The notes beneath the pieces are model-generated. The model was given only the letters and a program-made list of their open reading frames with translations. It had not been told where the DNA came from and searched no databases. A stretch of DNA of 63,012 nucleotides, counting the filler, from Reclinomonas americana ATCC 50394 (Eukaryota), in the NCBI GenBank assembly GCA_048213135.1. It is 4 parts of one record of this genome, joined end to end, with 100 filler letters (N's around TTAATTAATTAA, not from the genome) between each part and the next. Parts side by side here need not be neighbours in the genome. Positions count along the whole stretch, not along the records: positions 12,744 to 44,313 come from PS015302.1; 3 more parts are not named here. One strand, given 5' to 3'. Each line of letters starts with the position of its first letter. The first letter of the stretch is position 1. The position numbers and the translations under genes were made by a program. Positions 1-60,052 of this stretch are shown here, one piece after another.

Positions 1-91
1 AGAGAGAGAGAGAGAGAGAAGTGAAAGAGAGAGAGTGTGTGTGCATGCGTGCATTTCAAATTTGTGACATGCATTGTGTGAATCTGCGCAG

Positions 92-12643: not shown

Positions 12644-12743
12644 NNNNNNNNNNNNNNNNNNNNNNNNNNNNNNNNNNNNNNNNNNNNTTAATTAATTAAN
12701 NNNNNNNNNNNNNNNNNNNNNNNNNNNNNNNNNNNNNNNNNNN
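12644..12743. other. Artificial scaffold-joining spacer (N44-TTAATTAATTAA-N44)
   Basis: Exact 100-nt construct with stops in all six frames; repeated identically at 44314-44413 and 51225-51324. Confidence 0.97.
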
Positions 12744-13136: not shown

Positions 13137-15899
13137 ATGTCAGGCGCTGGTGCAGTTGCTGCTGTTGCAGCTGGTGGTGGTGGTGCCAATGCGGCTGCCG
13201 CACCCGCAGTCAGCCCACTGAAGAAGATCCTTATCCAGGCAGTGGTGCGTCTCTCACACACTGTCGCTCTTTCTCCGCCTCCACACACACACACACTCAC
13301 CCTCGCACTTTGCACAACCACGCCAGGTGATGATTGTCATGTACTTTGTGTTCCGCAACCTCTCAAAGCACGTGATGCCGTCGGTGCCGACGGTGGCGCC
13401 TGTCGACGACAATGCATCGCCGCTGTCGGGATTGATTCCCGTGCGCGTCGTCTCCGCAGATCGGCCCCTCCTAGTCACCACGCAAGCTGTCGACACTGAT
13501 GATGATGATGGAGGTGGAGGGGGAGGAGGAGGAGGAGTAGTGGCGGAGAGTCACGTGCAGTTGCCGCCTGTGCCGCGACAGGGCATCAGTGCCAAGGCGC
13601 TGCGCAGTGTGCGGCCGCAGTGGGCGCCGTCGCAAAAGATGGTGTGCCACGCACAGTGTTTCCTGTGTGTATAGGGTGTGCGCTTACATTGCGTGCGGTA
13701 GACGGTGCGAGTGTTCTTGTCGGTGGAGGAGGAGTTGTCGGACTTTTCCGAGCCGGCATGGGAGGTGGCGGGCTTGCGCATGTCGGCTGAGGATACGACA
13801 GTGTATGCACACAACATGACGCTGCCGGCGCCGCTGGTGCAGCACCTGATCGCCAACGGGACGGTGTATGCGCATGCCTTTGCGACTGCGCCTGGCGCGG
13901 AGATCAACCCGCGATCAGTCAACTTCAAGCCGTCGCTGTCGTACGGAATCGTCGTTCGTTGAGTTTCTCGCTCACCTCCTCCTCCTCTTCATCATCTTCT
14001 TCTTCCTCTTCATGCATGTGTTGCGTGCTCACATGGCAGCCACTCGACAGCGCTGAACCACTTTGAGGTGGTCAAGGCGAAACCCAAGACCCGCAACTTG
14101 CTGTTCGACGAGGCAACGCCGTCGGACGACACGACGACGACGACGCAAGACGTCGCCACAGTGGACACGGACGCAGAGTTCGAGGTGGATGTGCATGGCG
14201 AGCCACTGCCACCACCGCAACAGTGGGTTTCGGTGTTCCATCCTATCATGGACCTGCAAATGATGGCCTCGCCGCTGACCATTGCACTGGCCGATCTCCC
14301 CCCGAACGCGCTGCGTCGTTGCGTCTCTTTTCACCTGTGTGATAATGCTACTTATTTACCCACACGTGGACGAACACAGAAATCACCTTCACCTCCAAGG
14401 GCAAGTACTACCCGCCGTTCTTCATCAACAACTTCTGGACCATGTCGGAGCAGAACATTCCGGTCAACGCCACCATGGAGGAGCTGCCGCTGAACATGTC
14501 CTTCTCATTCACCACGGTGACCAAGTGGATGTTTACGAATCAGATGGAGAACTCGCTGTCGATGCAGGAGAACCTCACCGCCATGTCCTCGAAAGACAAG
14601 GACGAGTACAAGGTGTGTGTGCATCGTGCGCTCTCCTCATTATTGTGCTGTGCGCCTCGCCAACCAGCACGGTGTGACAGCGCATTCTGTTGGAGACGAA
14701 TCCGTGGTTGCTCGGTGTGACCGTGGTGGTCTCGATTTTGCACATGGTCTTTGACTTTTTGGCGTTCAAGAACGGTGTGTGCGCTGTACATCCTTTGTCT
14801 CCCTTTGCTTCTTGACTCACTGGATAGGGTGGCAGACATCATGTTCTGGAAGGACCGCAAGAGTCTGGAGGGGCTGTCGATACGCACTGTGCTGCTCAAC
14901 GCCTTTTGCCAATTCGTCATCTTCCTGTACCTGCTCGACAACGAGACCTCACTGCTGATTCTGGCCTCGGCCGGCATCGGCGTTTTAATTGATGGGTGGA
15001 AGATCACCAAGGCCTGTAACGTGTCGGTACGGTGGGTGCTGGGTGGACGCATCCCAGTGCCGTCGTTCCGCGCCAAGGAGTCGTACGAAGACTCGGATAC
15101 CGATAGGTTCGACAAGGAGGCCATGCGCAAGCTCGGCTACGTGCTGGCCATTCTGCTGTTCGGCTACAGCATCTACTCGGTGTTCACGAACGAGTTCAAG
15201 GGCTGGTACTCGTTTGTGTTGTCGACGACGGTCGGCGCCATTTACGCGTTTGGTGAGTCCCTGTCTGTGAACAGCTGCGAAACCTGTGTTACCAACAATC
15301 GAATCCATGCTACAGGCTTCGTGATGATGACACCGCAGATCTGGATCAACTACCGCACCAAATCGGTGGCACACATGCCGTGGCGTACGCTGACGTACAA
15401 GGCACTCAACACGTTTGTCGACGACCTCTTCGCGTTCATCATCAAGATGCCGACGCTGCATCGACTCAGTTGCTTCCGTGACGGTGTGCTGCGGTTCCTT
15501 GTGTGTTTTTTTGCGCATACACGCTCACGAGTCTGCTCGTGACCACCAGACATTGTGTTCTTTATTCTCATGTGGCAGCGCTGGATCTACCGAGGTTTGT
15601 CGCAGTGTGTGTGTGTGTGTGGTGGTGAATTTGGAGCAGAGTGGTGATTGGTGATTGTGCGTGCAGTGGACCCGAAGCGTGCCAACGAATACGGACAGCG
15701 TCTCATTGACGAACAGGCGGTGGTACCAGCAGGTGGCGATGCAGCCTCTGCCGACCAACAACAACCGGTGCAACAGGAACCGGCCAGCCCGTCGTCTGCT
15801 GCAGGTGCGATTGCGGAGAAGGTCACATCCAGTCAGCAGCAGCAGAAGCCAAAGGACAAGGGTCAGCGCGGAGAGCAGTCAGTGAGACAACGCAAGTAA
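13137..15899 (+). CDS. CLPTM1: Cleft lip and palate transmembrane protein 1 family (lipid scramblase-like)
   Basis: KTRNLLF, YYPPFFINNFW, LETNPWLLGVTVVVSILHMVFDFLAFKNDIMFWK, LYLLDNETS, FGFVMMTPQIWINYRTKSVAHMPWRTLTYKALNTFVDDLFAFIIKMPTLHRLSCFRDD, QRWIYRVDPKRANEYG. Confidence 0.96.
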
Positions 15900-15999: not shown

Positions 16000-18900
16000 T
16001 TATTGCACACGTGCATTCGCGTGAGCGGCGAGCATTTGCTCCATCATTAACCGCGTCTCCTGGAGCAACCGCTGTTGCTCACGTAATGCCTCCTCCACCT
16101 GCCGCCTCTGCTGCACAAGTTCGGCCGCTTGTCGCGTCAGCTCCTCACGTTGTGCGCGCATCTCCTCACGCTGCACTCTCAACTCCTCCTCCTGTCGCTG
16201 CCGCTCCGCCCGAGCCTCGGCCACCTCGGTGCGCAGTTGCTTGATCTCCACGTCCTGCTCGCGCATCGCTTGCACAATGATGGTGGTCATGCGACTGTAG
16301 TCGACGAGCTTGTAGAACGAGCCGTCGCGCTTGTTGGCGCGCAATATGAGTTCCGGGAACTCCATTTCGACCTCCTGAGCAACAAAGCCGAGATCAAGGC
16401 CCTTGTAGCCGTCTTTCTCGGCCTCGCTGTTCCAGCGATAGCGCACGCTGCGTAGGCCGAGCAGGCGATCGCGCACCGGTTCCATCGGCACAATGTCCTC
16501 TTTCTGTGCGCGTAGCGAACACAGCACAAGAAAATGAGCGCATTATAGGAGCAATCGAGGTGAAACACAGACGGCGAACCAGTCTCATATCCGACGGCAC
16601 GCCGAGTTGGATCGGGAAATCAGTGCACGAGGATGTGATCCAACGCGGAGACGTGCCACTCTGTAGCAGTGCATGGGCATGAGCAAAGGTGATGGATTGA
16701 CGTGCGAGGGAAACGGCACGCAACTGCGTACAGAAGATTGTACGACGCATTGCATCCGGGATTCGCCGATAGCACATACAGACCGTTGCGGAAGAAGACC
16801 GTATTGACTGTGCACAACGCGGGGTGAGGCACGGATACGGCAGCTGGCGACAGTACGTTGCCAGTGCACTCAACTAGTTGCGGCGCCCGTGAATGTGCTG
16901 GTGGTCGTCACGCTCAGCGACGTGCCGACAGAGACCGAGGTGGCGACCGTCAGCGACGAGTTTAGCGTTGTCGCGTTGGTCACTGTCAGGGTGTCGCCAA
17001 CGGAGACAGCACCGCCGACAGTGAGACTGGAAGTACCGAGGATGCTGACATTGCCGCGCAGGTTGATGATTGGCGAAAAAACAGTGGTTGAACTGAGCGC
17101 GCCAATGTTGCCGATGCGCACATTGAAGGAGCTGGTGTTGGTACCGAGGTTCACGTTGGCGTTTCCACCTTCGCCCGCCAACAGTGACCTGTGCGACAGC
17201 ACAGAGCCAGTCAGTTGCCATACACACACTCTCACACTCGTCCCGCAAACAAGGTGAACGCACAGATCGCCGCCGTTTGCCGCGTTGCCGTCACCGGCTT
17301 TCAGTTCGACATTCATGCCACTGACACCGGTGCTGGAGGCAGCGTAGCCTCGAATGCTAAACACACCGGTGAAGTTTGGCACGCCCAGAATAATGTACTT
17401 GTTGGAGGGGTCTCCACGATCTGTACATGCAAGTGACCAAATAAATGTGTGAGAGGCCAGCAGAGGAACAATTCTGTGTGGACGGTCGCGCGGACGCAAC
17501 TGGCATCGATGTAGATGCGGAGCGCAATGTCAAACGTGAGTTCAATGTCGGAGCGCACGATATTCGTACGCACGCCACCGACAGCATACTGCGCGGACAT
17601 TGCGTCAGTCGGGCGCAGCACGGAACGTGGAGAAAGGACACAATCTCGAGCACGCAACTGTCTCGCCAGAGGTGGTGAGACCGCCATTGATCTGCGCCGA
17701 CTGCTCGCACAGCAGCTGTGCAGCAAACAAGGCATGTTCAGTCTCACTAGTAACCATGTGTGCGCATGAGAAAAAAACGCACAAGATTGCGAATGGCAGT
17801 CGACGTGCCGATACCGGGACTGCCGACAACGACGCCGGTGGAGGCACCACCGAGAAGCAGAGTCTGTCGATAACATGAGTATGACAGCGCGAAAGAAACA
17901 GGGCGGAGAGGACGATGAACGATAGACACCCCCAGACTCTCACCGTCGCCGTGTCGAGCGTAATGGTGGATGCGCTCTTCAGCAACACACTGGACGCCGT
18001 GCTTTGGATTTGCACGGCGTTCGCCACGGTGGCAGTCAACGACACCATGGTGAACACAGACAAGCCACTCTCGACGGTAATCTGCAATGCCGGTCAGAAA
18101 CTTTCGCGCGCGTGTGCCACAAATGAAACGAAAACACGCTCGTACCGAGCCGCGAGTGGACCCAGTGGGGCCGGTTGATAGCACTAGATCGCCACCGGTG
18201 ACGGCTCCCGCGCCAGCGTCGTGAATGGCGCTCTCAATACGAAGCAGCGGTGGGGATGTCGGCGCCGCCATACGATACACCGACGCGTGCCGGATGGTGG
18301 TCGTGGTGTCTGCAGCAGCAGCACACCATCGCATGTCATTTTCGTCGTCGAAACGAGTAGCACACACTGACTTTACACTCGCATACCTTGACGACCAACG
18401 CGGAAGACATTGTCGATACCGCGCACAGGACTCGTGGTGGACAGCTCCAGCGGCGAATTCCACTGCGTGAGAGAGAGTGTGTGTAAGTTACCAGTGAAAC
18501 GAGATGCAGTGGCACTGATCCCACACTTGCGCACCACCACATTCGAAGCCGTGACAGTCACAGGCGCAGCACTGTTGCCGATGCTGAGGCTGGCAGTCTG
18601 TGTGACACCCATGATGACGGCGCCATTACCGCTGCTGCCGGAGCCGCCACGCAAGACTCTGCATAAGCACGCCGTGAGTGATTCAAATCTATTGATGTAC
18701 ACCTCCGCGCCACTCACAAGTCGCCACCGGCGCCGCCCGTCGTCTGCTGGCCCTGCATCACAAACGGACTCGGCGATCCGGCAATATCCGACGGCGACAG
18801 CGTGAGGGTCGTTGTCGGTGTGCCGAGGTCGTAGCCAAAGAAGAAGCGCCCAGCCGTGGCAATGATGCTCACAGTCGTCGCACTAAAGATGGTGGTGGTC

Positions 18901-21900
18901 TTCAGCTGAGTCGTCAGGGTCATATCCTGCTGCACGGTCAACTGCACACGAGGAGCGAGAATCCTCTGACGTGAGAAGAGCAACCCAGTGAGGCGTGCGG
19001 GGACTGCAATAACGACAAACCGGTCCCTGGATGGTGGTGGACTTGCCGGTCGCAGCAATGGTGATGCCGGTGAGCGACGCGTCGAGTGTGCCGATTGTGA
19101 TTTGCGTGGCATCCAGTCTCAGAGTGTTACCAGTGATGCTTACTGTCTTGGCGTCCACCGAGATCTGTCCGCCACCACCAGGGCACCACGATGAGCTGAC
19201 CGGGACGGGGCACAAAAATGAATGGATTGCGTGCAGACGCACCAAATCGGTGGTTCGTGTGGACGAGCCGAGGTACAGATTACGGCTGGTGCCTTGACCA
19301 GGGGCGATGCGAAGCGCAACGGCGGGCGATCTACGAGGCCACGAATCACAATACAAGGCGCCAATCAGTGCGGAATCAGAAGAAATGAGAGCAACGCCCC
19401 GCAGACGCACGTTACAGCGTTGTCAATGGTAAACAGATTGACTAGCGAGGTGGAGCTCGGAGTCCCCTGCAGCCGCACAGTGTCGACGGGTGCCGCAATG
19501 CCACCAATGACGGTGGCGGCTCCACCGATGCTGAGACCGCCGGCCAGCTGAGCAGCAATGCAATGAGTCAACACAAACAGCAGCGTTCACCAGCTTGGCG
19601 ATCCACATCACATACGCACCGTGGTGGTGCCGGAAACAGAGAGAGTTTGCTGCATGGATATGGCGCCCTGTACCACCACCGGAGTACTGGCGGCACCCAG
19701 GTAGACGGACGCCGAGCCTGCACTGCCAATCCACACCGCGCCAGGTGCGCCGCCCGCACCGGCACTCCCACCATCAACAAGCCTACAAAAAAATGTGACC
19801 GATCAGCAACGGGCCACAAGCATTGCAATTGGTGGCAGTGTGAGGTGGACGCAACACGTCGCCGCCATTCTTCATGGCTTCCGCAGTGGTCTGGCCGATC
19901 AGCTGCAGACTAACACCATTGCCCAGAGCACGAGAGGCCAGTTGCATCACAAACGGAATGGTACCCGGTTGCACAAGCGACAGCAGTCCGCTGGCCGGTG
20001 CAACACTAATGGCGCCAGCCGCACTTGACAGTGTACTCATCTGCACTGTGGTGGCGCTAACAGAAGGCGCAGTCAACAAGCCGGTCGACACAGTCAGATT
20101 TTGTGTGACCACCATCTACATGAGGTGCAATATCAATGTATGAGAGAGCACGTCGATGGCGACGACGAGCATCGACGACGCAACATCGCCAAGCGCGCGC
20201 ACGAGATTCGTCGTGGTACCGAGTCGGACCTCCGAGCTCGCTGCCGGGCCGTTCGCCTGCACCACAAAGTGGCCGGTGCTGGTCGACAGCGTCACAGTGT
20301 TCTGCACCGTCGCAGTCAACGAGCGCGACGTCAGAGTGATCTGTTTTGCCAGGCAGCTGTCAGTGTCACGTCAACAACAAAGTACAAAGCAGAAACTCCC
20401 AACCCCATTGGTGCGGAATCCGGCAGCGCCAATCGTGATGCTTCCGTCGACCGTGTTGGCACTGCTTTGCCCGGCTGTGCAGTGCAGATTGAATAAATAA
20501 TGAGCACAGCAGCGACAGCACAGCCATCGGCAAGATAACTCACCCTCGATGAGCAGATCACCGCCAGTGCCGCCAGTCGCACCACGGCGAATGGTGAACG
20601 GCGTACCAATGGCGTTGTTGCCGAACTCCACGGCGTTGATGCTGGACTGCACTTGGCCTGTGGTGAGGGCCAGTGTACCAACAGTGGCCGTCGATGTCAC
20701 GCTTAGCACGCCGGTGGTCACCGTCGCACTGAAACTGGTGGTTCCGGCAATGGTCACGCTCGACGAAGCGTTGCCGATGGTCACATTGCCACGCGTTGTG
20801 CCTGTACACGAGACGGGCAGAAGAGGAGGAGGAGGAAGAGAGATGTTTGTACGCATGTCGAACGACTGACACGCACAGGAAGACGAATTCTTCCTTACCA
20901 ATCAGTGTCTGGCCGGCGCCACCCGGTCCCGTGCCCGGATCCACCACACTGTCCGGCGAGTGAGTTGGCGGCTCATCATTTTTGCAGTGCAGCAAAGAGT
21001 GTCAGGGAACGCAACATGTTGCCACCGGCACCACTGGCTGCAACCTGGCCAACGACAGAGAGAGAGAACGCTGCGCCAGTGGCGTCGGGACGCGTCAGAG
21101 TAAATGTTGCTGCAGTACCCCCCAGTCTGCGCAACGCAAACAGTGAGGGAGGGGACGAGTAGACTGGCTGGGTGTGCGACAATGGGCCAGAAGAGCACCT
21201 CATGATGCCCGACGCCGCAGAAATGGACAGATCGCCCGACGTGGTGGTAATGCTGCCGGTGCGCACGCCGCTGTTCAGTGTGGCCAGACCGGCAACAGTG
21301 AGTGTTCCAGTGGTCACAGTGACATTTCCCGCAATGGTGGCAGTGGTGCCGACGGATATCGATCGGGAGAACGTCGACTGTGGCGTGAGAGAGGACGTGT
21401 CAAAAAAGCACAATCACGGTCGCAGTCAAGCGCAACCACGCCTCACCGCCGAGTTCACAAGCAGATTGGTGGTGGCAGTGCCGACCTCCACATCAGCAGT
21501 CGATCCAGTACCAATGTTAATCTTGACGGCACCAAACACATTGACAGTCTGACCGCGCATTGTCACCTGCACAGAAGCAAGTGTCAGTGTGTATTTGTGC
21601 ACGAGAAAAGCATCATTTTCGCGCACCTGCTGAGCTGCATCATCGCCGACTATGAGGAGTCCATTGGCTACGCTCGCGCTGTTGCGGCCACCACGAATGG
21701 TGATGCTGCCGCCGATCGTGGAACCATCACCGCCAGCAACGACAACATCGCCGCCGGCGCCGCTGGCCACCGTCGCTCCCATCAACCACAACGGTCCAGG
21801 AGACCCCGACGATGCAGGGGCACGCTGCAATCGGAAAGTGCTCGAGTCCGGATCACCAAACAGGAGCGACTGAGTGGTGGCCGAGGGCGTGATGAGAACA

Positions 21901-24900
21901 GTCGAGCCGGCGGACAACACCACGTTGCCCGTCACTCGCAACACGGGCGACGACACAAGAACGCGAGTGGTCGTGGACTTGCCCAACTCCACTTCGGATG
22001 ACGTGAGCGTGCCGACACGCACTGCGCCCTCCAGCNNNNNNNNNNNNNNNNNNNNNNNNNNNNNNNNNNNNNNNNNNNNNNNNNNNNNNNNNNNNNNNNN
22101 NNNNNNNNNNNNNNNNNNNNNNNNNNNNNNNNNNNNNNNNNNNNNNNNNNNNNNNNNNNNNNNNNNNNNNNNNNNNNNNNNNNNNNNNNNNNNNNNNNNN
22201 NNNNNNNNNNNNNNNNNNNNNNNNNNNNNNNNNNNNNNNNNNNNNNNNNNNNNNNNNNNNNNNNNNNNNNNNNNNNNNNNNNNNNNNNNNNNNNNNNNNN
22301 NNNNNNNNNNNNNNNNNNNNNNNNNNNNNNNNNNNNNNNNNNNNNNNNNNNNNNNNNNNNNNNNNNNNNNNNNNNNNNNNNNNNNNNNNNNNNNNNNNNN
22401 NNNNNNNNNNNNNNNNNNNNNNNNNNNNNNNNNNNNNNNNNNNNNNNNNNNNNNNNNNNNNNNNNNNNNNNNNNNNNNNNNNNNNNNNNNNNNNNNNNNN
22501 NNNNNNNNNNNNNNNNNNNNNNNNNNNNNNNNNGCAGCAGTGTTCGCAGCACCAGCGTCCAGGAACCTGGATGCCATCAATCGCCGTGAGCATCACTACA
22601 AGTGGGGTAGCCAAGAAAAATAGACACGAAACAGCGTGCCACCAGCATTGGCGCCCTGACCGGCTTGGCCGACAAGCGACGTCGACTGGCCTGCGGACGA
22701 CGTATTCTGCGGTCTCCGCAACACAAAGGCACTGTCGCCGCCCAACGCCACCACTCCAGAACTCGGCTGCAGCAAAATGTCGGCCACCGCAGTCCAAGAG
22801 CGAATGGCGTCGGCGGAAATGGCACCCGTGGCCAACGACAGACCAGAGGTGACTTGCAACTGAGCCACGCAGTCACAACACACAGTCAGGGAATCGATAT
22901 CAACGCTGTGAACAAGAACCACATAGCGACGAAACGGTGCCCGGCAGAATCACAGTCGATGCTGCGCTAGTGCCGATGTTGATGGTAGGAGCATCGAGTG
23001 TAATGGCAGTGGCTGCACTGGCAGTCACTTGCAGGGCGGACAGTGAAATCTACGCGAAGAACACGTTGACAGGCGAGTGAGTACTCAAGGGTGATGGTCG
23101 TCCACATGAGGAATAANNNNNNNNNNNNNNNNNNNNCAAAGCGCACCGATTTGGAGGTGTTACCGGCGTTGCCAATGAGAATGGAGCCCGGAATGCCACC
23201 AGTCGACGGAGCGCCTCCCAGGATTCGCAGATCGCCACCATCGCCGGCAGTTGCACGAGTGGTACGCTGCAATTGGAACTCGGTGCCCACGGCGGTGCCA
23301 ACAAACAGCACGGAACCAGAGGACACGGAAACAGTCGGCGACGCTGACGTCATGACAAGAGTACCGCCGACCTGCAGCGTGGTCGACTGCACAGTGGTGG
23401 TCGCACCCGTGCGCCCCACAATCACTGAGACGGCGCGCTCGGCGCCCACAAACACACTGCCGCCGACGGCTGCCGGAGTGGCGCCACTGTCCACGTATCT
23501 GTGTTGACATGGTGGCAGTGAGGGGGGATGAAAAAATACACGAACACGCAACGACAACCCCTTGGCCGTGACGCAACATAGCTCCTGGCGTGGAGCCAGT
23601 GGGACTGTCCTGGCCGAGCAACTTGAGGTCGACGCCGTTGGAACCAGCCGAGGAGGGCCTCGTCACCACAAACACCGTGGAGGACGAGGACGTGCCCAGG
23701 AACAGTTGAGAGGACGCCGGTTCCAAACGCAGCGGTAGCGCACTGTCGGTAGTAATCGAGGCTCGAACGAGAAGACCGCCAATGAAGGTGGCCACCGGTG
23801 TCACTGCAAGGCTACCGGCAACGCTCACTGCACCTCCGCTGCGTCCAATGGCCACAGACGGTGTGGAGGCGCCGGTGCCGAGTCGAACCTCGGTGCTCCC
23901 GTTCAAGTCAATCACTTGCGCTGTCGCACTTACCTGTATCACGTGCGTGTCAGTGCACATGTTTTCTTCTGCTTCTTCTTATTAAAACCGCTGAACACAC
24001 GAAACAGTAGCAGTACTCGAAGACCCGAGGATCAACACTCCGGAGACCGCCGCTGTCCCAGTGCCAGGTGGCGGTGTGATACGCAAACTGCCGCCGGCGC
24101 GGTTGGCCGCCGTGGGTGTCGGTCGCGTTATGCTAAATGTTCCCTGGTCCTCAACGCCGAGAACCAGCGTCTGTGTCGTCGAGGCTGTGAGAGCGCTGCT
24201 GCTTGACATGTCAATCGAGCCGAGAAACTGCAGGTGTGTCGCGCCAGTGAGCACCGAGCACGCAACAAGATGAAGAAGAAGACATGGAAGGCAGTAGTAC
24301 CTGCACACTGCCCTGCGCAGTGACGGCCGATGCAAATGTCGTCGTGCCAACCACACTGATCGAGTCGGCCGCCGCAGCTCCAAGTTGCACGGCGCCAGCA
24401 GCAAATGTCGCAGAGCCACGTCCACCAGCCAGTATCCTGCCAGTGACGAGAGCGGATGAGAAACTGTGCGATCGGTGGACGTCGAGGGTCGCGGGCAGTA
24501 CGCAACAGTGGGCCACCATTGCCGGAGGAGTTGTCCTGGCCAGCAAGGGTGGTCGACGTGGCACTACCACCTCCGCCGGCAATGGTGGGTCGTGTCACAG
24601 TGAAGCTGGCGCCACTAGCCGATGTGCCGAGAAGAATTCTCTGATTGGAGGACTGGATCGACAGGTTGCCGCCGGCAACGTCGCTCAACACCGGTGTCTG
24701 CACACCGACTGTGACAGACACCTGGAGTGTATCGTGGAATTCAGTCACTTATCACACAAGAGAGAGAGAGGGCGGAATCAGCGGCGACGCACCGTGCCAG
24801 CGATGGTGGTGGCACTTGTGGCTGACCCAATGGTGATGAGGGGAGTGGAGATGGTGCCGAGGCGCAGTTGTCCAATGGAGTCGACCGAGGTGATGGTGGC

Positions 24901-27900
24901 CGAGGTCACCGTCACGTGCGGGGTGCTGGTGGACGCGCCGATTTCCACGTTACCGGCAGAGCCACCATACACTCGCAACACATTGGTGACGCCTGGTCGG
25001 CGAATGGTGAAAATCGACTGCGCCGAGGTGCCCAGAATCAGATCCGACGTGTTTGGCGACAACAGTGTGGCGTTGTCCAGGCTCAGAGCGCCGAGGACAA
25101 GTGGATTGACCGGAGCCAGGAAGGTCACCGGGCCGTTGAATGTGGTGTCGGAGAGCACTTGCAGCGGTTTGCCGGACTGACCGACACGTACCTGCATGCA
25201 CAAAGCAGGGACGTCGCCGTGTTAGTATCAACACGCCCACCAGGAGATGCAATCGGCCGAGAGACGCACAGAGCCACTTGATCCACCAACGACCACGTCG
25301 CCGGGAGTCATGCCGCCACCCGCATCGACGTAACTGCGGTACGACGGTGGTGAGTGAGAGAGAGTGAGAGACGAAAATCGACAGTAGGCATTTGACATGA
25401 CGCAACACATCGCCTCCACGTGCACCCGTGGCCGTCTGACCAAGCAACGACGTGCGAGAGCCTGCAGCTCCATCGCTGCGACTCGGACGCCCGAGGATGA
25501 ACGCGTCAGTGTCGCCAAAATTAACCTGATCGCCATAGGGCGCCACCGACAACGCCGACACGGACGACGATGTGGTGATGGTGGCGAGCGAAAGCGCGCT
25601 TTGCATCTACGCTCCACCCCCACAATCAATTGAGTGAACGTGCGATGATTGACGGAGGGAGAGAAATGGGGCGACGCAACCTGGACGGTGCTGCTGCCCG
25701 CAGACAACACCAACGGCAGATCAGGCGAACTGATGCTGAACTGTGATGCCGACATTTGCAGGGTTGCCGTGCTGCTGGTCACGGCAAGCGTGATGCGAGC
25801 GGAGCGCGCTGTTCGCCCACACTACGTATGAGACACAACGCACAACACATAGAGGAGGCGTGAAGTCAAGGCACGCACATGAAAGCTGCGTCTGGAGCGA
25901 CAACAGGCTGTCGTTGTCGGCGGAGAGCACAGACAGCTGATTGACGAAGGAACCGGTGGAGGGGAATGTGATACCACCAGCGGCCGGAATGGTGAGTGCC
26001 GTGATGCCGGCAGACGTGAGAATGCGCAATCCGACAGGATCGGCCACAATGGTGTAATACTCGGAGAGATCCGGTCGCNNNNNNNNNNNNNNNNNNNNNN
26101 NNNNNNNNNNNNNNNNNNNNNNNNNNNNNNNNNNNNNNNNNNNNNNNNNNNNNNNNNNNNNNNNNNNNNNNNNNNNNNNNNNNNNNNNNNNNNNNNNNNN
26201 NNNNNNNNNNNNNNNNNNNNNNNNNNNNNNNNNNNNNNNNNNNNNNNNNNNNNNNNNNNNNNNNNNNNNNNNNNNNNNNNNNNNNNNNNNNNNNNNNNNN
26301 NNNNNNNNNNNNNNNNNNNNNNNNNNNNNNNNNNNNNNNNNNNNNNNNNNNNNNNNNNNNNNNNNNNNNNNNNNNNNNNNNNNNNNNNNNNNNNNNNNNN
26401 NNNNNNNNNNNNNNNNNNNNNNNNNNNNNNNNNNNNNNNNNNNNNNNNNNNNNNNNNNNNNNNNNNNNNNNNNNNNNNNNNNNNNNNNNNNNNNNNNNNN
26501 NNNNNNNNNNNNNNNNNNNNNNNNNNNNNNNNNNNNNNNNNNNNNNNNNNNNNNNNNNNNNNNNNNNNNNNNNNNNNNNNNNNNNNNNNNNNNNNNNNNN
26601 NNNNNNNNNNNNNNNNNNNNNNNNNNNNNNNNNNNNNNNNNNNNNNNNNNNNNNNNNNNNNNNNNNNNNNNNNNNNNNNNNNNNNNNNNNNNNNNNNNNN
26701 NNNNNNNNNNNNGTGCCGAGCACGATTTGCGAGGCCTGTGGTGCAGCGCCTGTGCCCGCCGGCTGCACGATGAACTTGCGCGCAATCACCGTCACATCGC
26801 CGGCATTGGAGGACGACGAGCTCGATCCAGCCTCCAGTACCACCGAGCCGCCGGGATCACCGCCGGCGAGCCGAACCTCGCCGCCAGGTCGCTGCGTCCC
26901 GAGACCACCAGCAATCAGCACGGCGCCGCCCGGTCCCGAAGTCTGTCGTCGCAGTGAGTTGCTCCGCAGACAAAGAATGAAGAAGGAAGGAACAGGATTA
27001 TCCACGCACCGCTTGCTGCCCCACGATGCTCGTCTGTGCGCCAGCGCCGCTTGACCGCTGCGGTCGCAGAATCATAAACTGACCCTGTGTTGTTTCGTCG
27101 CTGCTGTCGCCAAGGACCAGAGCATTGGTGTGCAACTTGGTGACGGTGGCGTTGACGGCGGCCAGTGACGGCAGTGTGGCGCGGGTCGACTGATCGCCGG
27201 TCGCCACACCGATGAGTTCAAAGAGAGTCACCCCGTTCCGCGTGATGGACAGCGAGTCGCCACCGGCCTCGGTCTCGATAACATACTGCGTTGCGCCACT
27301 GCTGGTACTGAGTGATACATACGGCGCCTCCGNNNNNNNNNNNNNNNNNNNNNNNNACGCTGTTGTCGCTTGCACCGCAAGCGCGGGACCCGAGAAGCCC
27401 GCAGATGCCCGTATCGACTCCACATTGGCGACACCTGGCGGAGCGGGGGAAAAGTGAGCCAAAAAAATGACGGAGCCTCGATGATGGACACAACGAAACG
27501 CACCGGTCACACGTAGTGTGCTGGTGGCTCCGTGAAAAATGAGCGCGTAGCCGTTCAGCAGGACGGCGAGTACAAAGTAGAGGATGAGCAGGTGGAGAAC
27601 CACCAGCGTCCACAGCACCGGACGCATCAACAGCACGCGCTCGAGTCCCGAACATCTCCTCGACGTCGGCTTGTTGCCACGCAGCAGCGACGGTGTCGAC
27701 ACATCGCGCACCAACGTCGCCGGCGGCAACATGGTGACCGGCGGCAGTGGCGCCACCTTGTCAACGGGCGACGCCGGGAACGCAATGTTGGTGGACGGGT
27801 GCAACCGCCGCACCACAGTGGTGAAGGCCGGTGTCGGCGAGTGCGCGACCACCGCACCAGCGGCGCTGCCAGTGGCAGGAGCAGAAGGGGGTGATGCGGA

Positions 27901-28093
27901 CGATGATGTCGGACGCACGGGTTCCAGTGCCTGTGTGCCAGCGGCGGTCAACGCCAGCGGCGGTGGCGAGAACGACGCTGGCGGTGGTGGTGGCGGTGGC
28001 GGTGGTGGTGGTGAGCGAGCAGCGACGAGTCGTAATGACGACATGGTGTCGCGCTGACTCGCTTGGCCACGATTATTACCGCCATCACCATCC

Positions 28094-28135
<42 letters not shown>

Positions 28136-28855
28136 CCGTCATCCTCATCGTCAGCACCGCCACGCACGCTGCGGTTCTCTGCGTTNNNNNNNNNNNNNNN
28201 NNNNNNNNNNNNNNNNNNNNNNNNNNNNNNNNNNNNNNNNNNATCTGCTCGCGACGGTGGGCTGTACATGGAGAGCGGCGCCGGCAACTGCATCACAGAG
28301 TGCGGACGACCGTGCGGCTCCACATTGATTACTGTTGGCGCCTGCAAACCGCGACTCGACAGACGCGAGGTGGCTCGTGGCCACATGCCCATCCCGTCAG
28401 CCAGTGGCGACTGCCGTGCGAGAGACGAGGCCAGGTCGACGCCACCCAAAGGCGACACGGCGCTGCTCATGTATGCGTGTGTGGAGAATGTGTCGACGGT
28501 GGGTGGCCGGCGTGTCATCCGCACACGCTCACGCGCAGCCAGCAGATCCTCCAGGGGGAGAGGAGGTGGTGGTGCTGCGGAGGGTGGGAAGGCTGGCCCA
28601 GAGGCACCACCAGGGGTCGCCGACAGCGGCACCAACGACCAGCGGTGATTGACGTGCGGTGTGCTGCCGCTCGTGGGAACCGCCAGTGCACCAGAAAAGT
28701 CGCGCGGAGAGGCTGACCCCGCGGTGCCTACTGCGGGNNNNNNNNNNNNNNNNNNNNNNNNNNNNNNNNNNNNNNNNNNNNNNNNNNNNNNNNNNNNNNN
28801 NNNNNNNNNNNNNTCGCATACCACGCAGTGTCGAGTGAGACGAGGTGTCGCCCAT
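16000..28855 (-). CDS. Giant multi-exon predicted type II membrane protein: low-complexity N-terminus, TM helix, long G/S/T/V beta-repeat fibre, C-terminal Peptidase S74 (ICA) chaperone domain plus coiled coil
   Basis: Minus-strand exons continue across several gaps. Hydrophobic stretch VLWTLVVLHLLILYFVLAVLLNGYALIF at about 27534-27618. About 14 repeats of F-x-x-x-R..G..L-x-GQ..GG-D-(V/L)..AG. C-terminus VPSDMRL|KEDIVPM..LLGLRSVRYRW..LGFVAQEVEMEFPELI..VDYSRMTTIIVQAMRE. Start ATG (28855) and continuity through gaps are inferred. Confidence 0.8.
28092..28135. repeat. (CAT)n microsatellite encoding poly-Asp in the minus-strand giant gene
   Basis: catcatcat.. run, in frame as DDDDDDDDDD in the N-terminal low-complexity region. 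Confidence 0.85.
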
Positions 28856-29032
28856 AATCTCACACGCACGCACACGAAAAGATGACAAATGGCTGATTGG
28901 CAGATGAAATCAGACAGACGCCAAGGGTCTCGTGCATTGCCTGTGCCACTCGCGACGAGTGCACGCGTGCATACACTCAAGTGCGAGAGAGCGTGGGGGG
29001 ATGGAAAGAATAAAAGTCTTGATTGTCGTCGT

Positions 29033-30547
29033 TCATTTGCGCCGCAAGTCACGAAGCGCCGATTTCGAGCGTGCAAACAGCAGCTGCGACGAGGGCGCGT
29101 GAGCTGCAGTGCGTGAGGCCCATTGCGACAAAGAGTCGTGATGCTGCCGGCCGCCGTAGCAGTGCCAGATGGTGACAAACGGCGCCGTCTTCTTGTGCGT
29201 GTCACTCACTCGCTTCTCGCGTGAGCCGGGCGGCGGAATGTAGGTGTACCGCCGACCGGCGGCCGGCACCAGATAAAAGGGGAACTGGGTGCGCGCCACT
29301 GCATCCTCATAGTAGTCCTTCTTGTGCATAAAATTGGGCGCAAGGAGGAACCAAGGACGACTTGATTGGCTGCAGAATCGAGCGATGCGCTGCAAGTGAT
29401 CTCCGCTGTATGGCTGCAGCTCTCATCGTCAGCGCCGTCGACAGCAGCAGGATGCACCAGGACGAAAAACACCAGACGCAACTGGGTTCGTCAGCAGCAC
29501 GTCGTACTCCTCCACATCGCCATTCTCCCACTTGGCGTAGCAGTCCTCGTTTCGATTGTAGACGTTGGCGAAGCCGAGAGCGGCCATGCGCTGTACCACG
29601 CCACCGGCGCAGTAATACGGGTCTGTGGGCCACAGACGTGGTCAGCAATACGTAGCCAGACAGGTTGGACATCGCAACCACCTACCATAAATCCGCAGCT
29701 GACTCGGCGTCTTGCCCAGCATGGCGGCCAGCTGGCGCAACACCGGAGCAATGTCCTCGTACGCCTCTGGCGGTGTTTCGCAGTGGTCATCCTCGTCGAC
29801 CTCGAATGCATACGCCACAGCAGCTGCTGATGCTACAGCTGTTGTCGTTGTTGTTGTCGTGGTTGTTGTGGTGCTCTCCTCCGTNNNNNNNNNNNNNNNN
29901 NNNNNNNNNNNNNNNNNNNNNNNNNNNNNNNNNNNNNNNNNNNNNNNNNNNNNNNNNNNNNNNNNNNNNNNNNNNNNNNNNNNNNNNNNNNNNNNNNNNN
30001 NNNNNNNNNNNNNNNNNNNNNNNNNNNNNNNNNNNNNNNNNNNNNNNNNNNNNNNNNNNNNNNNNNNNNNNNNNNNNNNNNNNNNNNNNNNNNNNNNNNN
30101 NNNNNNNNNNNNNNNNNNNNNNNNNNNNNNNNNNNNNNNNNNNNNNNNNNNNNNNNNNNNNNNNNNNNNNNNNNNNNNNNNNNNNNNNNNNNNNNNNNNN
30201 NNNNNNNNNNNNGTTTCCCTTGTTCTTCTTCTTCTTCTTCTTCTTGCTCTTCTCCTGTGACGCCTCTTGCGCTGGGGCTGGTGGCTGCGGTTTCTGTTGC
30301 TCCTTCTTTTGCTTGCGCTTGAGTCGCTTCTTCTCCGCTCGATTCAGTCTCTGCGCAAAAGCATGCACGTGAGACGCATGCACACACACATGCACACACA
30401 CACATGCACACACACACACTCACTCACCTTCTTCAATGGAGGTGCTTCGTCATCGACGTCATCTTCTCGCTCACGTTTTCTGCTCTGCTTCTCGTCGGCA
30501 GGCTCTCCGTTTTTCGATTTCTTCGCCTTTCTCTCTGTCTCACTCAT
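29033..30547 (-). CDS. Putative N6-adenine (amino) methyltransferase with a Lys-rich N-terminus
   Basis: Spliced product: DDHCETPPEAYEDIAP..LRIY|DPYYCAG..GFANVYNRNED..DVLLTNP|PYSGDHL..RPWFLLAPNF..RYTYIPP..KTAPF..W. DPY-type motif I and NPPY motif IV are present. ATG at 30547; one internal gap. Confidence 0.8.
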
Positions 30548-30888
30548 CACGACGCGTAGCGACTTGGAGTAGAGTGGGACAGAGAGTGCATGAAACAGGA
30601 CGACGTGCATGCATTGGCCACAGATGAATCTGATGAGCAAGAGAAATCGGTTTTTTTGCTTAAGGGTTGTTGGAGAGCGGGACTGTGTGCGCGTGTGTCT
30701 GCGAGTGTTGTGCGTGTACGAGCTGCTCGAGTGTAGAGCACCGCATTTGATCGCCAGCCGCAGCGTGCTCGTCATCTTGCCGTGTCGTAGTGTGATCGAC
30801 AACAAGTTGTTCGCTTTTCCTCCTACACGAGAATCTCTGGATCGTGTGTCGACGCCCATCGTCGACGATGCGAACGTTACGAGGCGAG

Positions 30889-33800
30889 ATGCGAGTGCCG
30901 CTGTTCTGCGTTGTACTGCTACCGGTGCTGCTGTTGTTGCTGTGCGCAAGTGCAGTTGGTACGTGTCACACTTTTGCCTCGCGCGAAAGAGAGCAGTGAA
31001 TTGCCGTGCCCGTCATCTGACTTGCATGTGTGTGTCATAGTGCGGGCCGATGAGTTTGTGGTGCGCCACGCCCATTGCTCACGACAGCTGACGCTGTCGA
31101 CGACCACGATTTTCGCACCGGCGGCACTGTGTGCCGAATTGCATGACGCCGAGACGGTGGTGGACTACTCTGTTTCGTTTACCATGAAGAAGCCGACTGG
31201 TCCGCTCTACGTGCGCGTCCATCACCTGACGACGGAGACGAGTTTGAGCGCGTCGGCCCACCTCGACGGTCGTCCAGTGCCGGTGCAGATCTCGGGTGAG
31301 TTTTCGACATTCTTCGTGCCGGCCGGAACGTCGACAGTGGCGATTGAGGCCACTGCCTCGCTTGTGCGCATCGAGTACCAGAGCGCCAACGCACGGAACA
31401 CCAATGCGGAGTGGAGCAACGCTGCCGAACTGGTGGCGACGACGATTGTGACCACGGGCGCGATGGAGTGCGACCCGCTGACCACATGCTCCGGCGGTGG
31501 CACATGCAACACCGACGGCACATGTGCATGCTTCTCTGGCTTTGGTGGCGCCAACTGTGCGTGCAATCCGTCGGTGACGTGCCGCGGGCACGGTCGTTGC
31601 AACGCCGACGGAACGTGCCAGTGCTTCCCCAACTGGAAGGGAGGTGTGTAGTGTGTGCGCACCGTGCACCCGCAGCGCAGCGTTGAAGGAAGACACTGAG
31701 TCGCGCGCCTGCACAGATCAATGCGCTTCGTGCAACACGGACTGGTTCGGAGCCGAGTGTTCGCGCTACTGCAACGCGTCACAGACCTGGTACGTACGTC
31801 GTGCGCATCATGCATGCAGTGGGTGAGGTGTTGAGACAGACCACTGACCACTTGAGAACTTGCTTGTCGACGTCAGCCGTGGCAATGGATCCTGCAGTGC
31901 CGGCGACGGTGCATGCCTCTGCTTTGCTGGCTTTGGAGGATCGAACTGTGCGTGTGCCAAGTCCACCTGCGGCAACTATGCCATTTGTGATCCGACTGGT
32001 GTTCTCGGCGAGTGTGTGTGCCCGGCCGGCTTCGGCGGACCTGCGTGCACATGCTCCAACGCAATCAACTGCAACGGCAACGGCTCGTGTCGTGCCGACG
32101 GCACCTGCCAGTGTGATGCAGGTGCTGGCGGTCCGAACTGTGCGTGTCGCGATGTCGTCGACTGCAGTGGACACGGTGCGTGCCAAGCCAATGGTTCGTG
32201 CTTGTGTGCACAACCGTTTGGAGGCAAGAGCTGCGCCTGCGACGAGAGCAAGTGGTGAGTGATATTTGAAAACCCCCCATTTTTTCGTATATGTCGCTGA
32301 GCAACACTCGCCGCCTGTTGCAGCACACCGGGTCGCAGCACCTGCGACAAGAACTCCACCGACGGCTCATGCTCGTGTTTGCCTGGCTGGTTCGGTGCGG
32401 ACTGCCAGTGCGATCCCAACACGTGTGGCAAGTCGGCCGGTCGTGGAGACTGCGCAGCCAAGGGCACGAGTGGCGCATGCGCGTGCGCCGCTGGATTCGG
32501 TGGGCCTGGTTGCCAGTGCTCAGACGCGGTGAACTGCTCCGGCAATGGCACCTGCAATGCTGACGGCACCTGCACCTGCAAGGCTGGCTTTGGTGGCAAG
32601 GACTGCAGTTGTGTCGAGTCGTCGTGCTCGGCCGCCGGACACGGTCGCTGTGATCCGAACAGCACCACTGCGGCGTGCTTGTGTGACAACGGCTTTGCCG
32701 GTCTGCATTGCTCATGCTCACAAGCCAGCTGCGGCTACAACAGCAATCCTGCCGTCTCGCGTGGTTCCTGCGATCCGACCAGTGGCAGCGGTGCGTGCCA
32801 GTGTGCGGCTGGGTGGGGTGGGCGGAACTGTTCATGTTTGGAGTCCGGATGCGGTCATGGTAAGTGCAATCCATCCGCATCCGACGGCTCGTGCCTGTGC
32901 GATGCACCGTACACGGGTGCCGACTGCAGCTGCAATTCGACCACCGACTGGTGAGGGGAGAGAGAGTGAGAAGCCGCAGCGTGTGATGATTGTTTGTTGA
33001 ATTCTACTTTGCTCGCTGTACAGCTCGGTGACTCTCGGTCAGGGGCAGTGCGACAGCAGTGGGCTGCGCGGCGCTTGTGTGTGCGGCATTGGTTTTGATG
33101 GCCTCCATTGCTCATGTCGCAATGCCGACTGCAAGAACAGCACCTTCTGCGATCCGTCGGCAAGTGACGGTAGCTGCCTGTGCTCGGACTCATTTGTGGG
33201 CAAGGATTGCGGCTGCGACGGAGCTGTCGACTGGTGAGTGAGAGTTCTGCAGGCGACTTCGTGTGGACGTAGGCTCACCACAGCGCGCACACACACTTGC
33301 AGCAATGTGAGCAACAACGGCGTGAAGCAGGGTTCGTGCGACGCTCATGGAACCAACGGTCAGTGCGCATGCGAGAACGGCTGGGTCGGCAGCACGTGTC
33401 AGGTGGCCTGCAATGCTGCCACCGACTGTTCCGGTAACGGGACGTGCAACCCCGACGGCTCATGCACGTGCTTTGAGGGTTTCGGCGGCCTGAACTGCGC
33501 GTGCGACAGTCGTCACTGCAGTGCGATTTCGTCGCGCAGTCAGTGCAACGCGCTGGCCACCGATGGCTCGTGCATCTGCGAGGCTCCGTGGAGTGGTGCC
33601 GACTGTCAGTGCAACTCGCAGTCTGCCTGCTCGACTGCCCTCGGTCACGGCCAGTGCGACCCGCACGGTACGAATGGCGCGTGCGTGTGCGAGCCAATGT
33701 GGGGTGGTCGCGACTGTTCGTGCTCTGAGTTGCGAAGAAGAAGAAGAACAGCATCGCAGCGGTCAGCTGTAGTGCACTTGTGAATCTCACCACTGCCTGT

Positions 33801-37013: not shown

Positions 37014-39270
37014 TTAAGCGTTGGCGAGTTTCATGTGCACCGGTGGATCGCACTTGCGCTTGATAAACTGACCAATGTACACCGGCAAGCACGAGCAAAG
37101 GGTGATGAGGCACACCTTGAGCCAGAACGTGGCCGTCAACACAAAGGCCAGATCTGTGTCGAGAGAAGGAGAGAGAGAGAGAAAGAGAGAGAACGATTAG
37201 TTGGCGGTACGGCGCGCAACACACGCACGGCTACGCACTCACCAAACTCAGACGGCAGTGCCAAGAATGACGAGAGGTAGAGCACGAGCGAGAAGACCAC
37301 GGCATACACATTCCACATCTGGATCTTGTGCAACTCGAACGCCACCATCAGCATCTCGGTGAGGATGAGGGCGGTAAAGGTGATGGAAACAACGTTGAGG
37401 AATGAGTTCTCAAACAGCGCAATGGCCAGCAGCATAATCACACCGCCTTGGTAGACGCTGAGCAGGAACCAGATGAGGAAGGTCTTCATCGACAATGTGC
37501 GACCCTACAACGTCGACACGCCACACAGTCAGTGGCAGTGATGCCGCAACACTCACACGTGCGTGCGTGCACACCTTCAACAACTCGCGATACAACTCGG
37601 GGTACGTGAGCGCGACATCGGCAGTGACATCCTCATCCAGCACCAGTGAGAAGACAGGGAACATGGTGTACAGTGTGGCGTACCTATGTGTGACAAGAGG
37701 GGAGGAAGTGGTAAGCGTCACCGAGATGACGCAGTGGGGAGAGATGACTAACCCAACGGCCAGCCAGCCGGCGTAGATTGGCAGTGGTGAAAAGTAAAAC
37801 AGCGCGGAAAAGAGCGCTTGGATGATCGAGATGATGAGGCCGCGGTGAATCACAAACTGCGCCAGTCGAGCACTCCGATTGTATGAGTTGCGCCCGTGCC
37901 AGACTGCGCGCGATCGCATGAGCAAGACGCGTGTCGCACAATGCACATTAACTCGTGGCAGACGCAACACAGGAGACGAGTAATGTGTGAAAACTGTGTG
38001 ATTGAAAAATCGGCGGCCAGCGACGCCTGCTTGCCCTCCTTGCCCTCAATGCCAATGCCAACATCGGCTGCGTTTCGCGAACAAGCAACATATCAGTGGC
38101 CCGCACGAACACGTGGGCAGGCCGAGGAGGCGATTTGCACGCTTTGTTACCTGATTGAATCATGGCTACGTCGTTGCCACCGTCGCCGACTGAACACGCA
38201 CGAGCACCAGTGATGCGTCGAATCAAGTGGACCACCAAGGCCTGTGCGTGGAATGTCAGGCAAAGCCTGGCAGCTTGCTGCATGGCTGCAACGCGTTGCG
38301 TACCTTTTGTGTCGGAGAACAGCGACAGCATACGACTGCTGGCGCGCGACATGCCAATTCGGCAAAGCGTTGACGCACACTCTCCGACAAGCAGAATCCG
38401 AGTGTCAATCCATCAACCACAATCACAGTCTCCGTGGTGGCATCCTCGCCACGCCCTCGCACACCCGTGGAATCGACTGCGAGAGATAAGTCAGCGCGCA
38501 GTGAGCAGCACAAGTCACTGCGCGCAACACAACGCAACACTGCAAGTGGCCGCGACCACCCATCATGCCGGCCAGACGATCCAACTCCAGATTGGTGGTG
38601 GTGATATCCGAGGCCTGCCAGAAGCAATGTTTACACGTGCAGGTGTTATGGCGTGCATGCAACACACTTTACAAACCATGAGCTTGAAGATAATGTGTGT
38701 GCGAGAAAACAGACGGGCACTTCGCGCAATGCAAATCGCAGTTTCCACCTTGTCGCCCGTCAGCATCCACACCTTGATGCCCGCATTGCGGAAGTTCTCC
38801 AACGACGCCTGCACCTCATCCTGCACGGCACGCACCCAGCAGGTGAGCTGAAAGATGGAGATACGATTCTCCACCACCACATACACACACACCTGCAACT
38901 TGTCCTCCACACCAGTGACGCCAATCAACGTGAGACCGCGTTCCAGGTAGTGCTCCAGAACCTCTCGCACGCGACCAGCTCGATTCTGCAACCACGACGA
39001 CGACGACGACACGTTAGGGTGGGAAGTCGGTGGCGGAGCACGCAAAATGGTACAAACCTCGATCGCTGCCTTGGCGTCGTTGTGCTGCAGCGTAAACTCC
39101 TGGAACTCGTCCTCCGTCAAGTACCGGTACGCAAACACCAGTGTGCGCAGGCCTTCGCGTGCCATGTTGTCGCACTCCTCCACGAGCCAGTCGCTGGTCA
39201 GCATTTTGCTCATGACCGCATCCGCACTGATGCGCGACGCGTCAACAACATGCTGCTTTGCGGGCACACA

Positions 39271-39301
<31 letters not shown>

Positions 39302-40417: not shown

Positions 40418-40453
<36 letters not shown>

Positions 40454-44313: not shown

Positions 44314-44413
44314 NNNNNNNNNNNNNNNNNNNNNNNNNNNNNNNNNNNNNNNNNNNNTTAATTAATTAANNNNNNNNNNNNNNNNNNNNNNNNNNNNNNN
44401 NNNNNNNNNNNNN
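44314..44413. other. Artificial scaffold-joining spacer
   Basis: N44-TTAATTAATTAA-N44. Confidence 0.97.
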
Positions 44414-51224: not shown

Positions 51225-51324
51225 NNNNNNNNNNNNNNNNNNNNNNNNNNNNNNNNNNNNNNNNNNNNTTAATTAATTAANNNNNNNNNNNNNNNNNNNN
51301 NNNNNNNNNNNNNNNNNNNNNNNN
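51225..51324. other. Artificial scaffold-joining spacer
   Basis: N44-TTAATTAATTAA-N44. Confidence 0.97.
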
Positions 51325-59919: not shown

Positions 59920-60052
59920 TGGGTGGTGTTTGTTTGTTAGTTGTGTTGAGGGAGAGAGAGAGAGAGTGTTGTCTCGAGAGTGACGAAAGGGTTTGCGGTG
60001 AATTGGGCGGCAACGCGCGGCTGACACAGGACTTGGTTTTTTATTTGTCGAC

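Follow-up and report, generated by a model that had tools for sequence, protein, structure and literature searches.

In eukaryotic cells, to our knowledge, S74 chaperones have been characterised only in the MYRF-type transcription factors. Outside these, they are part of fibres of phages, giant viruses, polinton-like viruses (PLVs) and bacteria; the K1F endosialidase and T5 pb1 are phage examples in which the S74 chaperone is C-terminal. Such intramolecular chaperone (ICA) domains are trimeric in every characterised member, as far as the available parts of two reports go (PMC8326128, PMC3742443). A preprint, in its accessible portion, describes seven proteins that combine NDT80, a transmembrane (TM) segment and an S74 domain and that are MYRF-like, not fibres (10.64898/2025.12.20.695554). 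In full-text literature searches, S74 uses were found in phages, extracellular contractile injection systems, giant viruses, PLVs and MYRF, and no host-encoded, membrane-anchored eukaryotic S74 fibre was found. Could a eukaryote, then, encode an S74 fibre of its own?

Here we analyse a stretch of 63,012 nucleotides (nt), filler included, of Reclinomonas americana ATCC 50394 (assembly GCA_048213135.1). The whole stretch is called the window below, and all positions count along it. A first-pass annotation of the window had proposed a spliced minus-strand gene between 28855 and 16000, referred to here as the fibre gene, for a membrane-anchored, phage-tail-fibre-like protein with a self-cleaving S74 chaperone. 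The reading towards which we lean is that this gene encodes a host type II membrane protein, which would mature into a trimeric, self-cleaving, membrane-rooted fibre, where trimer, cleavage and location are argued from the S74 family.

The presence of the S74 domain itself is practically certain. The first-pass annotation had recognised a Peptidase_S74 signature and suggested a search with the Pfam profile PF13884; the open reading frame (ORF) at 16000-16542 (minus strand) matches that profile with an E-value of 1.7e-9 and 38.3 bits (cut-off 22), residues 13-66 of the ORF aligning on profile positions 5-57 of 58 (DNA 16506-16345). The strings KEDIV..YRW..GFVAQEV..FPELI..VDY that had been named are present in the last exon, while SDMRL lies in the upstream exon 16660-16580 and KEDIV begins at 16503, with a 76-nt GT..CAG intron (16579-16504) between them. 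The DNA at the junction reads CCG TCG GAT ATG AGA CTG / GTTCGCC...CGCACAG / AAA GAG GAC ATT GTG, and the inferred splice yields P-S-D-M-R-L followed by K-E-D-I-V, that is, the S-x4-K spacing of a Ser-Lys dyad. The start of the domain, with the catalytic Ser in it, is thus encoded by the upstream exon, outside the ORF matched by Pfam, and the domain as a whole occupies 16345..16594 (minus strand), with the Ser codon at 16594-16592 and the Lys codon at 16503-16501. The Ser-Lys dyad of the first-pass annotation is borne out by the environmental relatives, which carry S-D-N-R-L-K at the aligned site, and by MYRF, whose catalytic pair S578/K583 has identical spacing according to the available part of the report (PMC3742443).

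Several further searches with the S74 exon agree. Against PHROGs, 21 families were matched at E <= 0.1, 17 of them in the tail category, and the best one (phrog_5668, 1.3e-14) was matched over positions 1471-1564 of 1567, i.e., at its extreme C-terminus. Peptidase_S74 was found in 28 of the 30 nearest ESM Atlas clusters. A profile built from the S74 exon and five environmental relatives matched the phage long tail fibre 6f45 in the PDB at 8.6e-12, the ICA domain of MYRF (7dc3) at 4.9e-7 and the tail fibre 8jov at 7.1e-7; for the exon alone, 6f45 was the sole PDB match, with E 0.17. The AlphaFold monomer of the exon (mean confidence score, pLDDT, 76.8 for the whole model) shows one continuous helix over residues 69-166 (98 residues, pLDDT 86-97), encoded at 16006..16299 (minus strand) and presumed to form a trimeric coiled coil. 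In ICA domains a helix forms the trimeric core, as the accessible text of one study has it (PMC8326128), and the predicted helix fits that core helix, being much longer. Close relatives were not found: the exon has two loci in IMG/VR, at 30% identity, and five in metagenomes, with 38% identity at best and two of them aligning over the coiled coil only. The homologue search with the exon scored 6148 candidates and that with its residues 1-100 scored 237, in both cases with none at E <= 0.001. Note that the homologue searches covered proteins up to 2000-2350 amino acids (aa), so that full-length relatives of about 3000 aa were unfindable by them.

To obtain the gene model, all three minus-strand frames were read first, and a splice-aware dynamic-programming model was then applied. 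It scored codons by log-odds from 11 exons of the same gene picked by eye, used introns of the GT..AG kind and rewarded the splice motifs (donor, branch and acceptor) found in an initial pass. The best path runs on the minus strand from 28530 to 16003 and is stop-free, with 42 exons and 41 introns; it comprises 2870 codons, 175 of them X from N gaps, and scores 618.7. As a control, the program was also run on the opposite (plus) strand over this region and gave a score of -21.9, with 25 'introns', one of which has a donor of the GTGCGT/GTTGCG type, and 3490 coding nt versus 8610 on the minus-strand path. The N-free introns are strikingly regular: all 38 of 38 fall within 59-97 nt (median 72), the acceptors are CAG in 34 and TAG in four, and the donors begin with GTGCGT in 10 and with GTTGCG in another 10. 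Where no N intervenes, the space between exons never exceeds 97 nt. The stop codon, TAA at 16000..16002, was read from the sequence, as was a candidate start codon, ATG at 28853..28855. At the other end of the protein, the long ORF 26998-29205 holds the low-complexity N-terminal stretch, the TM helix and the first stalk module in one frame; what separates the TM helix from that module is a predicted short intron together with a gap of 24 N.

Does this gene belong to the host? We are very confident that it is a spliced host gene, and here the first-pass annotation holds. Matches to a strict intron signature number 63 in the window, compared with 0-8 in 20 shuffles, and are also present in the SURNod19 gene (nine times, plus strand, 1-3000) and the flippase gene (seven times, minus strand, 39-42 kb). 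Because the same signature marks these two genes, the introns of the fibre gene are of the host type. N-free bins have a GC content of about 0.55-0.61, with no difference in composition between the region of the fibre gene and its flanks; GC at third codon positions is 0.65-0.76 in the fibre exons versus 0.69-0.80 in neighbouring genes. The alternative is an endogenous viral fibre gene, left by an integrated PLV, virophage or giant virus and either serving the virus or decaying. As described in the accessible portions of the reports, PLVs integrated in protists carry modular fibre proteins that reach 3.9k aa and have Peptidase_S74 at the C-terminus (PMC12220804), and giant-virus islands are enriched in Peptidase_S74 (PMC13620141). 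Since PLVs and giant viruses carry such S74-terminated fibres, the absence of viral hallmarks matters: in the flanking ORFs scanned (150 of the 158 selected), capsid, packaging ATPase, polymerase and integrase were all missing and only host families appeared. Together with 41 spliceosomal introns of the host signature, the composition like that of the flanks, the host genes on both sides, a TM anchor at the N-terminus where a virion-attachment domain would be expected, and only 30% identity to the closest S74 domain in IMG/VR, this leaves a viral origin of the gene highly improbable.

The N-terminal part (27637..28737, minus strand) is Pro/Ser/Ala/Asp-rich and of low complexity, and its frame is open into the TM helix; it would be cytoplasmic. 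Among the 348 non-X residues before the TM helix, P makes up 16.4%, S 12.4%, A 12.4% and D 8.0%, in line with the Pro/Ser/Asp-rich N-terminus described earlier, and the part includes a 15-residue acidic run (28134-28090) and a run of 11 Pro (28011-27979). The single TM helix, which the first-pass annotation had placed at about 27534-27618, was found at 27636-27535 (minus strand), with the core PVLWTLVVLHLLILYFVLAVLL at 27621-27556. The helix holds the most hydrophobic 19-mer of the gene model (Kyte-Doolittle hydropathy 2.66) and is its sole strongly hydrophobic segment. Its N-side flank, RGNKPTSRRCSGLER, is positive and K/R-rich, and its C-side flank, HGATSTLRVT, is nearly uncharged. According to the positive-inside rule, the positive flank stays on the cytosolic side. 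Therefore, the charge asymmetry of the flanks fits an N-in/C-out orientation, that is, a type II signal anchor.

A protein with both a TM helix and an S74 domain, and with an acidic, Pro-rich N-terminus superficially like an activation region, might suggest a membrane-tethered regulator of the MYRF kind, whose S74 cut frees a signalling fragment. The layout speaks otherwise. No family, NDT80/PhoG included, was found by Pfam at E <= 1 in the N-terminal pieces 27358-28185 and 28243-28737. In addition, the TM helix lies at about residues 155-190 of the model and the S74 domain at about 2699-2870, some 2500 residues C-terminal of the TM helix and on the opposite side of the membrane; cleavage there therefore cannot free the cytoplasmic part. 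A regulator of this kind is rejected, and the difference in layout from MYRF/MrfA that the first-pass annotation had pointed out is real: NDT80 is absent, and S74 follows the TM helix instead of preceding it.

Between the TM helix and the S74 domain, the ectodomain stalk (16875..27432, minus strand) spans about 35 exons and four N gaps and is built from a module of about 120 residues, present in no fewer than 14 copies. The Cys-poor, G/S/T/V-rich character noted in the first pass is pronounced: the ectodomain has two Cys and 20 N-x-S/T sequons in 2323 non-X residues, and T, G, S, A and V together account for 61%. In the alignment of the modules (A1), the core reads L.LG..(x)F.I.RP..G..L.L.GQ..G.GGD, followed by.L.GG..G.I.IG. 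A hidden Markov model (HMM) of 14 module segments gave 21 envelopes in the gene model, 14 of them with an independent E-value <= 1e-4, and, when all ORFs of the window with 50 aa or more were searched (819 in all), it matched 15, every one on the minus strand and between 16873 and 25606. Because this HMM was trained on the same segments, the result shows confinement to this gene and is not an independent copy count. Eight of the 10 phase-2 introns occur at one position of the module, directly after GG[DPTN] or PGA. From this shared site it follows that the array grew by duplication of an intron-containing exon pair, within a eukaryotic lineage; the intron position in the repeats is thus a record of the growth of a giant gene. 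The longest N-free module exon (21447..22034, minus strand, 196 codons) was used as the query for the searches and for the fold. It should be noted that a probable in-frame 57-nt intron (GTGCGC..CTGAC..CAG) lies inside it at 21570-21626 (minus strand), which may be retained or alternatively spliced.

Two small exons, 16807-16725 and 16660-16580, link the last module to the S74 Ser. They encode an aromatic-rich segment of about 50 residues (16595..16807, minus strand), and it is here that both Cys of the ectodomain are located. After cleavage at the Ser, this Cys/aromatic segment would form the distal tip of the fibre. The receptor-binding tip of phage fibres sits at the corresponding place.

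Relatives of the stalk module are very few. An exhaustive HMMER search of the longest module exon against 1.84 billion representative proteins returned four at E <= 0.001. Two of them, P0002 and P0003, were set aside as unrelated tandem-repeat proteins. P0001 (112 aa) is 49% identical over residues 2-85, and its similarity stops at V-R-E-S, which is what a GTGCGT donor would translate to; it is probably a genomic fragment from a related organism. P0004 (470 aa, E 2e-5) is intronless and carries four stalk-type modules (F.VERP..GQ..GGDI.I.GG), ending in a short helical tail with no S74 domain. Therefore, the module also occurs apart from the S74 chaperone. Neither P0001 nor P0004 has a Pfam family; each is a singleton and comes from a contig of about 1.5 kb assembled from public runs. 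The nearest ESM Atlas clusters of the module are labelled Eukaryota/Chlorophyta (0.94 and 0.93), which is a lead only and may reflect composition.

By analogy with the S74 family, a mechanism can be proposed. One nuclear, intron-rich host gene of about 2900-3000 codons would encode, in this order, a disordered Pro/Ser/Asp-rich cytoplasmic tail, a signal-anchor TM helix, a stalk of about 2400 residues made of at least 14 divergent modules that arose by exon-pair duplication in the host lineage, the Cys/aromatic tip, and the S74 domain with its helix of about 100 residues. The protein would be inserted into the membrane as a type II protein, and in the lumen of the endoplasmic reticulum three chains would join via their S74/coiled-coil ends, which would act as the nucleus or template on which the stalk folds into a trimeric fibre. 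After folding, the dyad of Ser (PSDMRL) and Lys (KEDIV) would cut at the conserved Ser, setting free the chaperone as a piece about 172 residues long. What is left, the mature fibre, would stay attached through its three N-terminal TM helices, its small tip at the far end, as a long filament displayed either on the surface of the cell or within a secretory compartment, on the luminal face. If each residue adds as much length as in phage fibres, the filament could reach the order of 100 nm. Adhesion or a hair-like surface coat would be the most economical guess for its role, and any specific surface role is doubtful.

Several points weigh against this reading, and the first group concerns the continuity of the gene. 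The window comes from a draft scaffold with 20 N gaps, six of which are inside the fibre gene: 28738-28813 (76 N, starting 14 codons past the ATG at 28855), 28186-28242 (57 N, in the N-terminal part) and, in the stalk region, 27333-27356 (24 N), 26079-26712 (634 nt), 23117-23136 and 22036-22533 (498 nt). The start is a candidate only, either the ATG at 28855 or the next in-frame one at 28518. The codon scores were trained on the exons of this same gene, and the antisense control has the same bias; the path score is therefore partly circular, and the regularity of the introns is not. The gaps of 634 and 498 nt could in principle conceal a stop and a restart, i.e., a gene boundary. Moreover, on the 3' side, about 100 nt separate the fibre stop from the end of the last open frame of the convergent CLPTM1 homologue (PF05602, up to 9.6e-46; 13702-15899, plus strand), and gene spacing is therefore very tight. 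The region might hold two or more genes, or a misjoined assembly, with the TM part and the S74 part belonging to separate neighbouring paralogues or to wrongly scaffolded pieces. However, coding sequence enters both large gaps from either side and is module sequence next to each gap, all N-free junctions are bridged by canonical introns of 59-97 nt, the module matches are confined to one strand as given above, and the region has one S74 domain and one TM helix. One transcript over the gaps 26079-26712 and 22036-22533 is thus likely, as judged from the sequence. We regard a single gene from the TM helix through S74 as quite probable, and separate genes as unlikely, with an appreciable residual chance.

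The second group concerns the fold and the ancestry of the stalk. The stalk exons matched no family in Pfam, and homology to a phage or viral fibre family was not detectable; of six stalk exons compared with PHROGs, five had no match at E <= 0.01, and the remaining one matched phrog_36281 (unknown function) weakly, at 1.7e-4. The search with alignment A1, under the same size limit as the other homologue searches, scored 8000 candidates, none at E <= 0.001, and the two credible relatives described above, both on short contigs, are too few to gauge conservation. The AlphaFold monomer of the module exon has a pLDDT of 67.5 overall and 75-84 over residues 1-100, and its low-confidence stretch 132-152 (pLDDT < 50) coincides with the probable 57-nt intron. 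With this model, Foldseek gave no match in the PDB and none at E <= 0.001 in BFVD; likewise, the monomer model of the S74 exon gave nothing in the PDB at E <= 0.001, and no S74 entry was among its matches. Three VIA chains reached Z >= 2, namely 3vto (Mu gp45 central spike, 2.4), 9c3c_g (a chain of the dystrophin-glycoprotein complex, 2.3) and 6sjl (VgrG, 2.2), all at chance level, and the ESM Atlas feature score of 0.82 to a DUF2345/Sarcoglycan cluster is at chance level as well. These three chains and this cluster point to trimeric beta-helical towers, as leads only. Since the monomer fold matched nothing clearly, a trimeric fold of the stalk rests on analogy.

Could the product of a single gene then be something else, acting inside the secretory system as an extrusome component or as a scaffold of scales or wall, or folding as a monomeric beta-solenoid with S74 as a cleavable cap? 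The location is not fixed by the sequence, and the first 100 residues of the module are modelled as a monomer at the pLDDT just given. Gly-rich GGD..GG repeats are also found in monomeric beta-rolls. On the other hand, the VIA chains with Z 2.2-2.4, not significant as they are, include the trimeric beta-helical spikes Mu gp45 and VgrG, and the characterised S74 domains are all trimeric, so far as the available text of the two reports extends (PMC8326128, PMC3742443). We consider a non-surface or solenoid product improbable and retain the trimeric, membrane-rooted fibre as the better reading. As to ancestry, the stalk is a near-orphan module and is not detectably phage-derived. Consequently, the description of the protein as phage-tail-fibre-like stands only for the S74 end and the overall architecture, and the earlier proposal that a whole viral or bacterial fibre had been domesticated is not supported, given a stalk that is almost an orphan and matches no viral fibre family.

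The genes around the fibre gene are ordinary host genes. Besides the CLPTM1 homologue, those recognised are SURNod19 (1417-4170, plus strand); a long gene with EGF, teneurin-type EGF and laminin-EGF repeats (30791-36775, plus strand), divergent from the 5' end of the fibre gene; a P4-type phospholipid flippase (37139-41931, minus strand); the alpha-N-acetylglucosaminidase NAGLU (53811-56247, minus strand); and linker histone H1 (59515-60081, minus strand). Further host families in the window are an NTPase_1 gene, an EDC4-like piece and ankyrin repeats. The flippase, NAGLU, H1 and SURNod19 genes have the short-intron signature in common. The 5' ends of the EGF-repeat gene and the fibre gene face each other across about 28.9-30.7 kb, a space that includes the N gap 29885-30212. 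At 12644-12743, 44314-44413 and 51225-51324, paired gaps of 44 N occur with exactly 12 bases between them, likely an artefact of assembly or masking and not biology.

We put forward, as a tentative proposal only, that this eukaryote makes its own membrane-rooted, trimeric filament with a length of the order of 100 nm, matured by S74 and built on a lineage-specific stalk expanded by at least 14 duplications of an exon pair, and that it would be the first host-encoded structural (non-MYRF) use of S74 on a eukaryotic surface. The first-pass annotation knew of no eukaryotic system of this sort; in the texts searched, that holds for a host-encoded, membrane-anchored case, and it does not hold for S74-terminated giant fibres as such, which are described in PLVs integrated in protists and in giant-virus islands. 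PF13884 may well be present in uncharacterised eukaryotic entries of the databases. If the proposal is true, a phage-type assembly mechanism has been taken over, in its original fibre-folding role, for the surface architecture of a eukaryotic cell; it would offer a molecular way into the filaments on protist surfaces, few of whose proteins are known, and a candidate undescribed class of protist surface hairs or adhesins. The fold of the module, near-absent from 1.84 billion representatives, is worth solving.

How, finally, does the locus compare with the known systems? It resembles the ICA of phage tail fibres and tailspikes (6f45) in that a very long, Cys-poor fibre has S74 at its extreme C-terminus, with an S-x4-K dyad and a trailing helix, and in the match of PHROG tail-fibre families over their last ~100 positions. 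Unlike phage fibres, the gene is nuclear with 41 introns, a TM helix takes the place of the N-terminal virion-attachment domain, the stalk has no phage fibre family, and the trailing helix is unusually long, at about 98 residues. Like MYRF/MrfA, the product would be a eukaryotic protein with a TM helix, an S74/ICA domain and a Ser-Lys dyad, and the profile match to 7dc3 (4.9e-7) reflects this likeness (PMC3742443, PMC8326128). In MYRF the order is DNA-binding domain, ICA, TM and luminal domain, and cleavage frees the cytosolic part. In the present protein the order is tail, TM helix, a stalk of about 2400 residues and S74, with no NDT80, and cleavage would free the chaperone only.

With the fibres of PLVs and giant viruses, as far as they are described in the available parts of the reports, the present protein shares the format of a giant modular protein with a single C-terminal Peptidase_S74, encountered in eukaryotic assemblies (PMC12220804, PMC13620141). 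Those fibres reside in viral elements and are composed of known modules (laminin_G_3, collagen, PTR, adenovirus fibre), whereas the present gene is intron-rich, lies among host genes, and combines a TM anchor with an orphan module. A functional analogy may be drawn with the sarcoglycans, with an N-in single-pass anchor and an extended, beta-rich extracellular stalk, where the scores are at chance level. Sarcoglycans are type II membrane proteins with an extracellular beta-helical tower, and they differ in having no S74 and a very different size, with no sequence homology shown. What the locus presents is thus the principle of the S74-matured fibre in a new host and with new anchoring, and not a new category.

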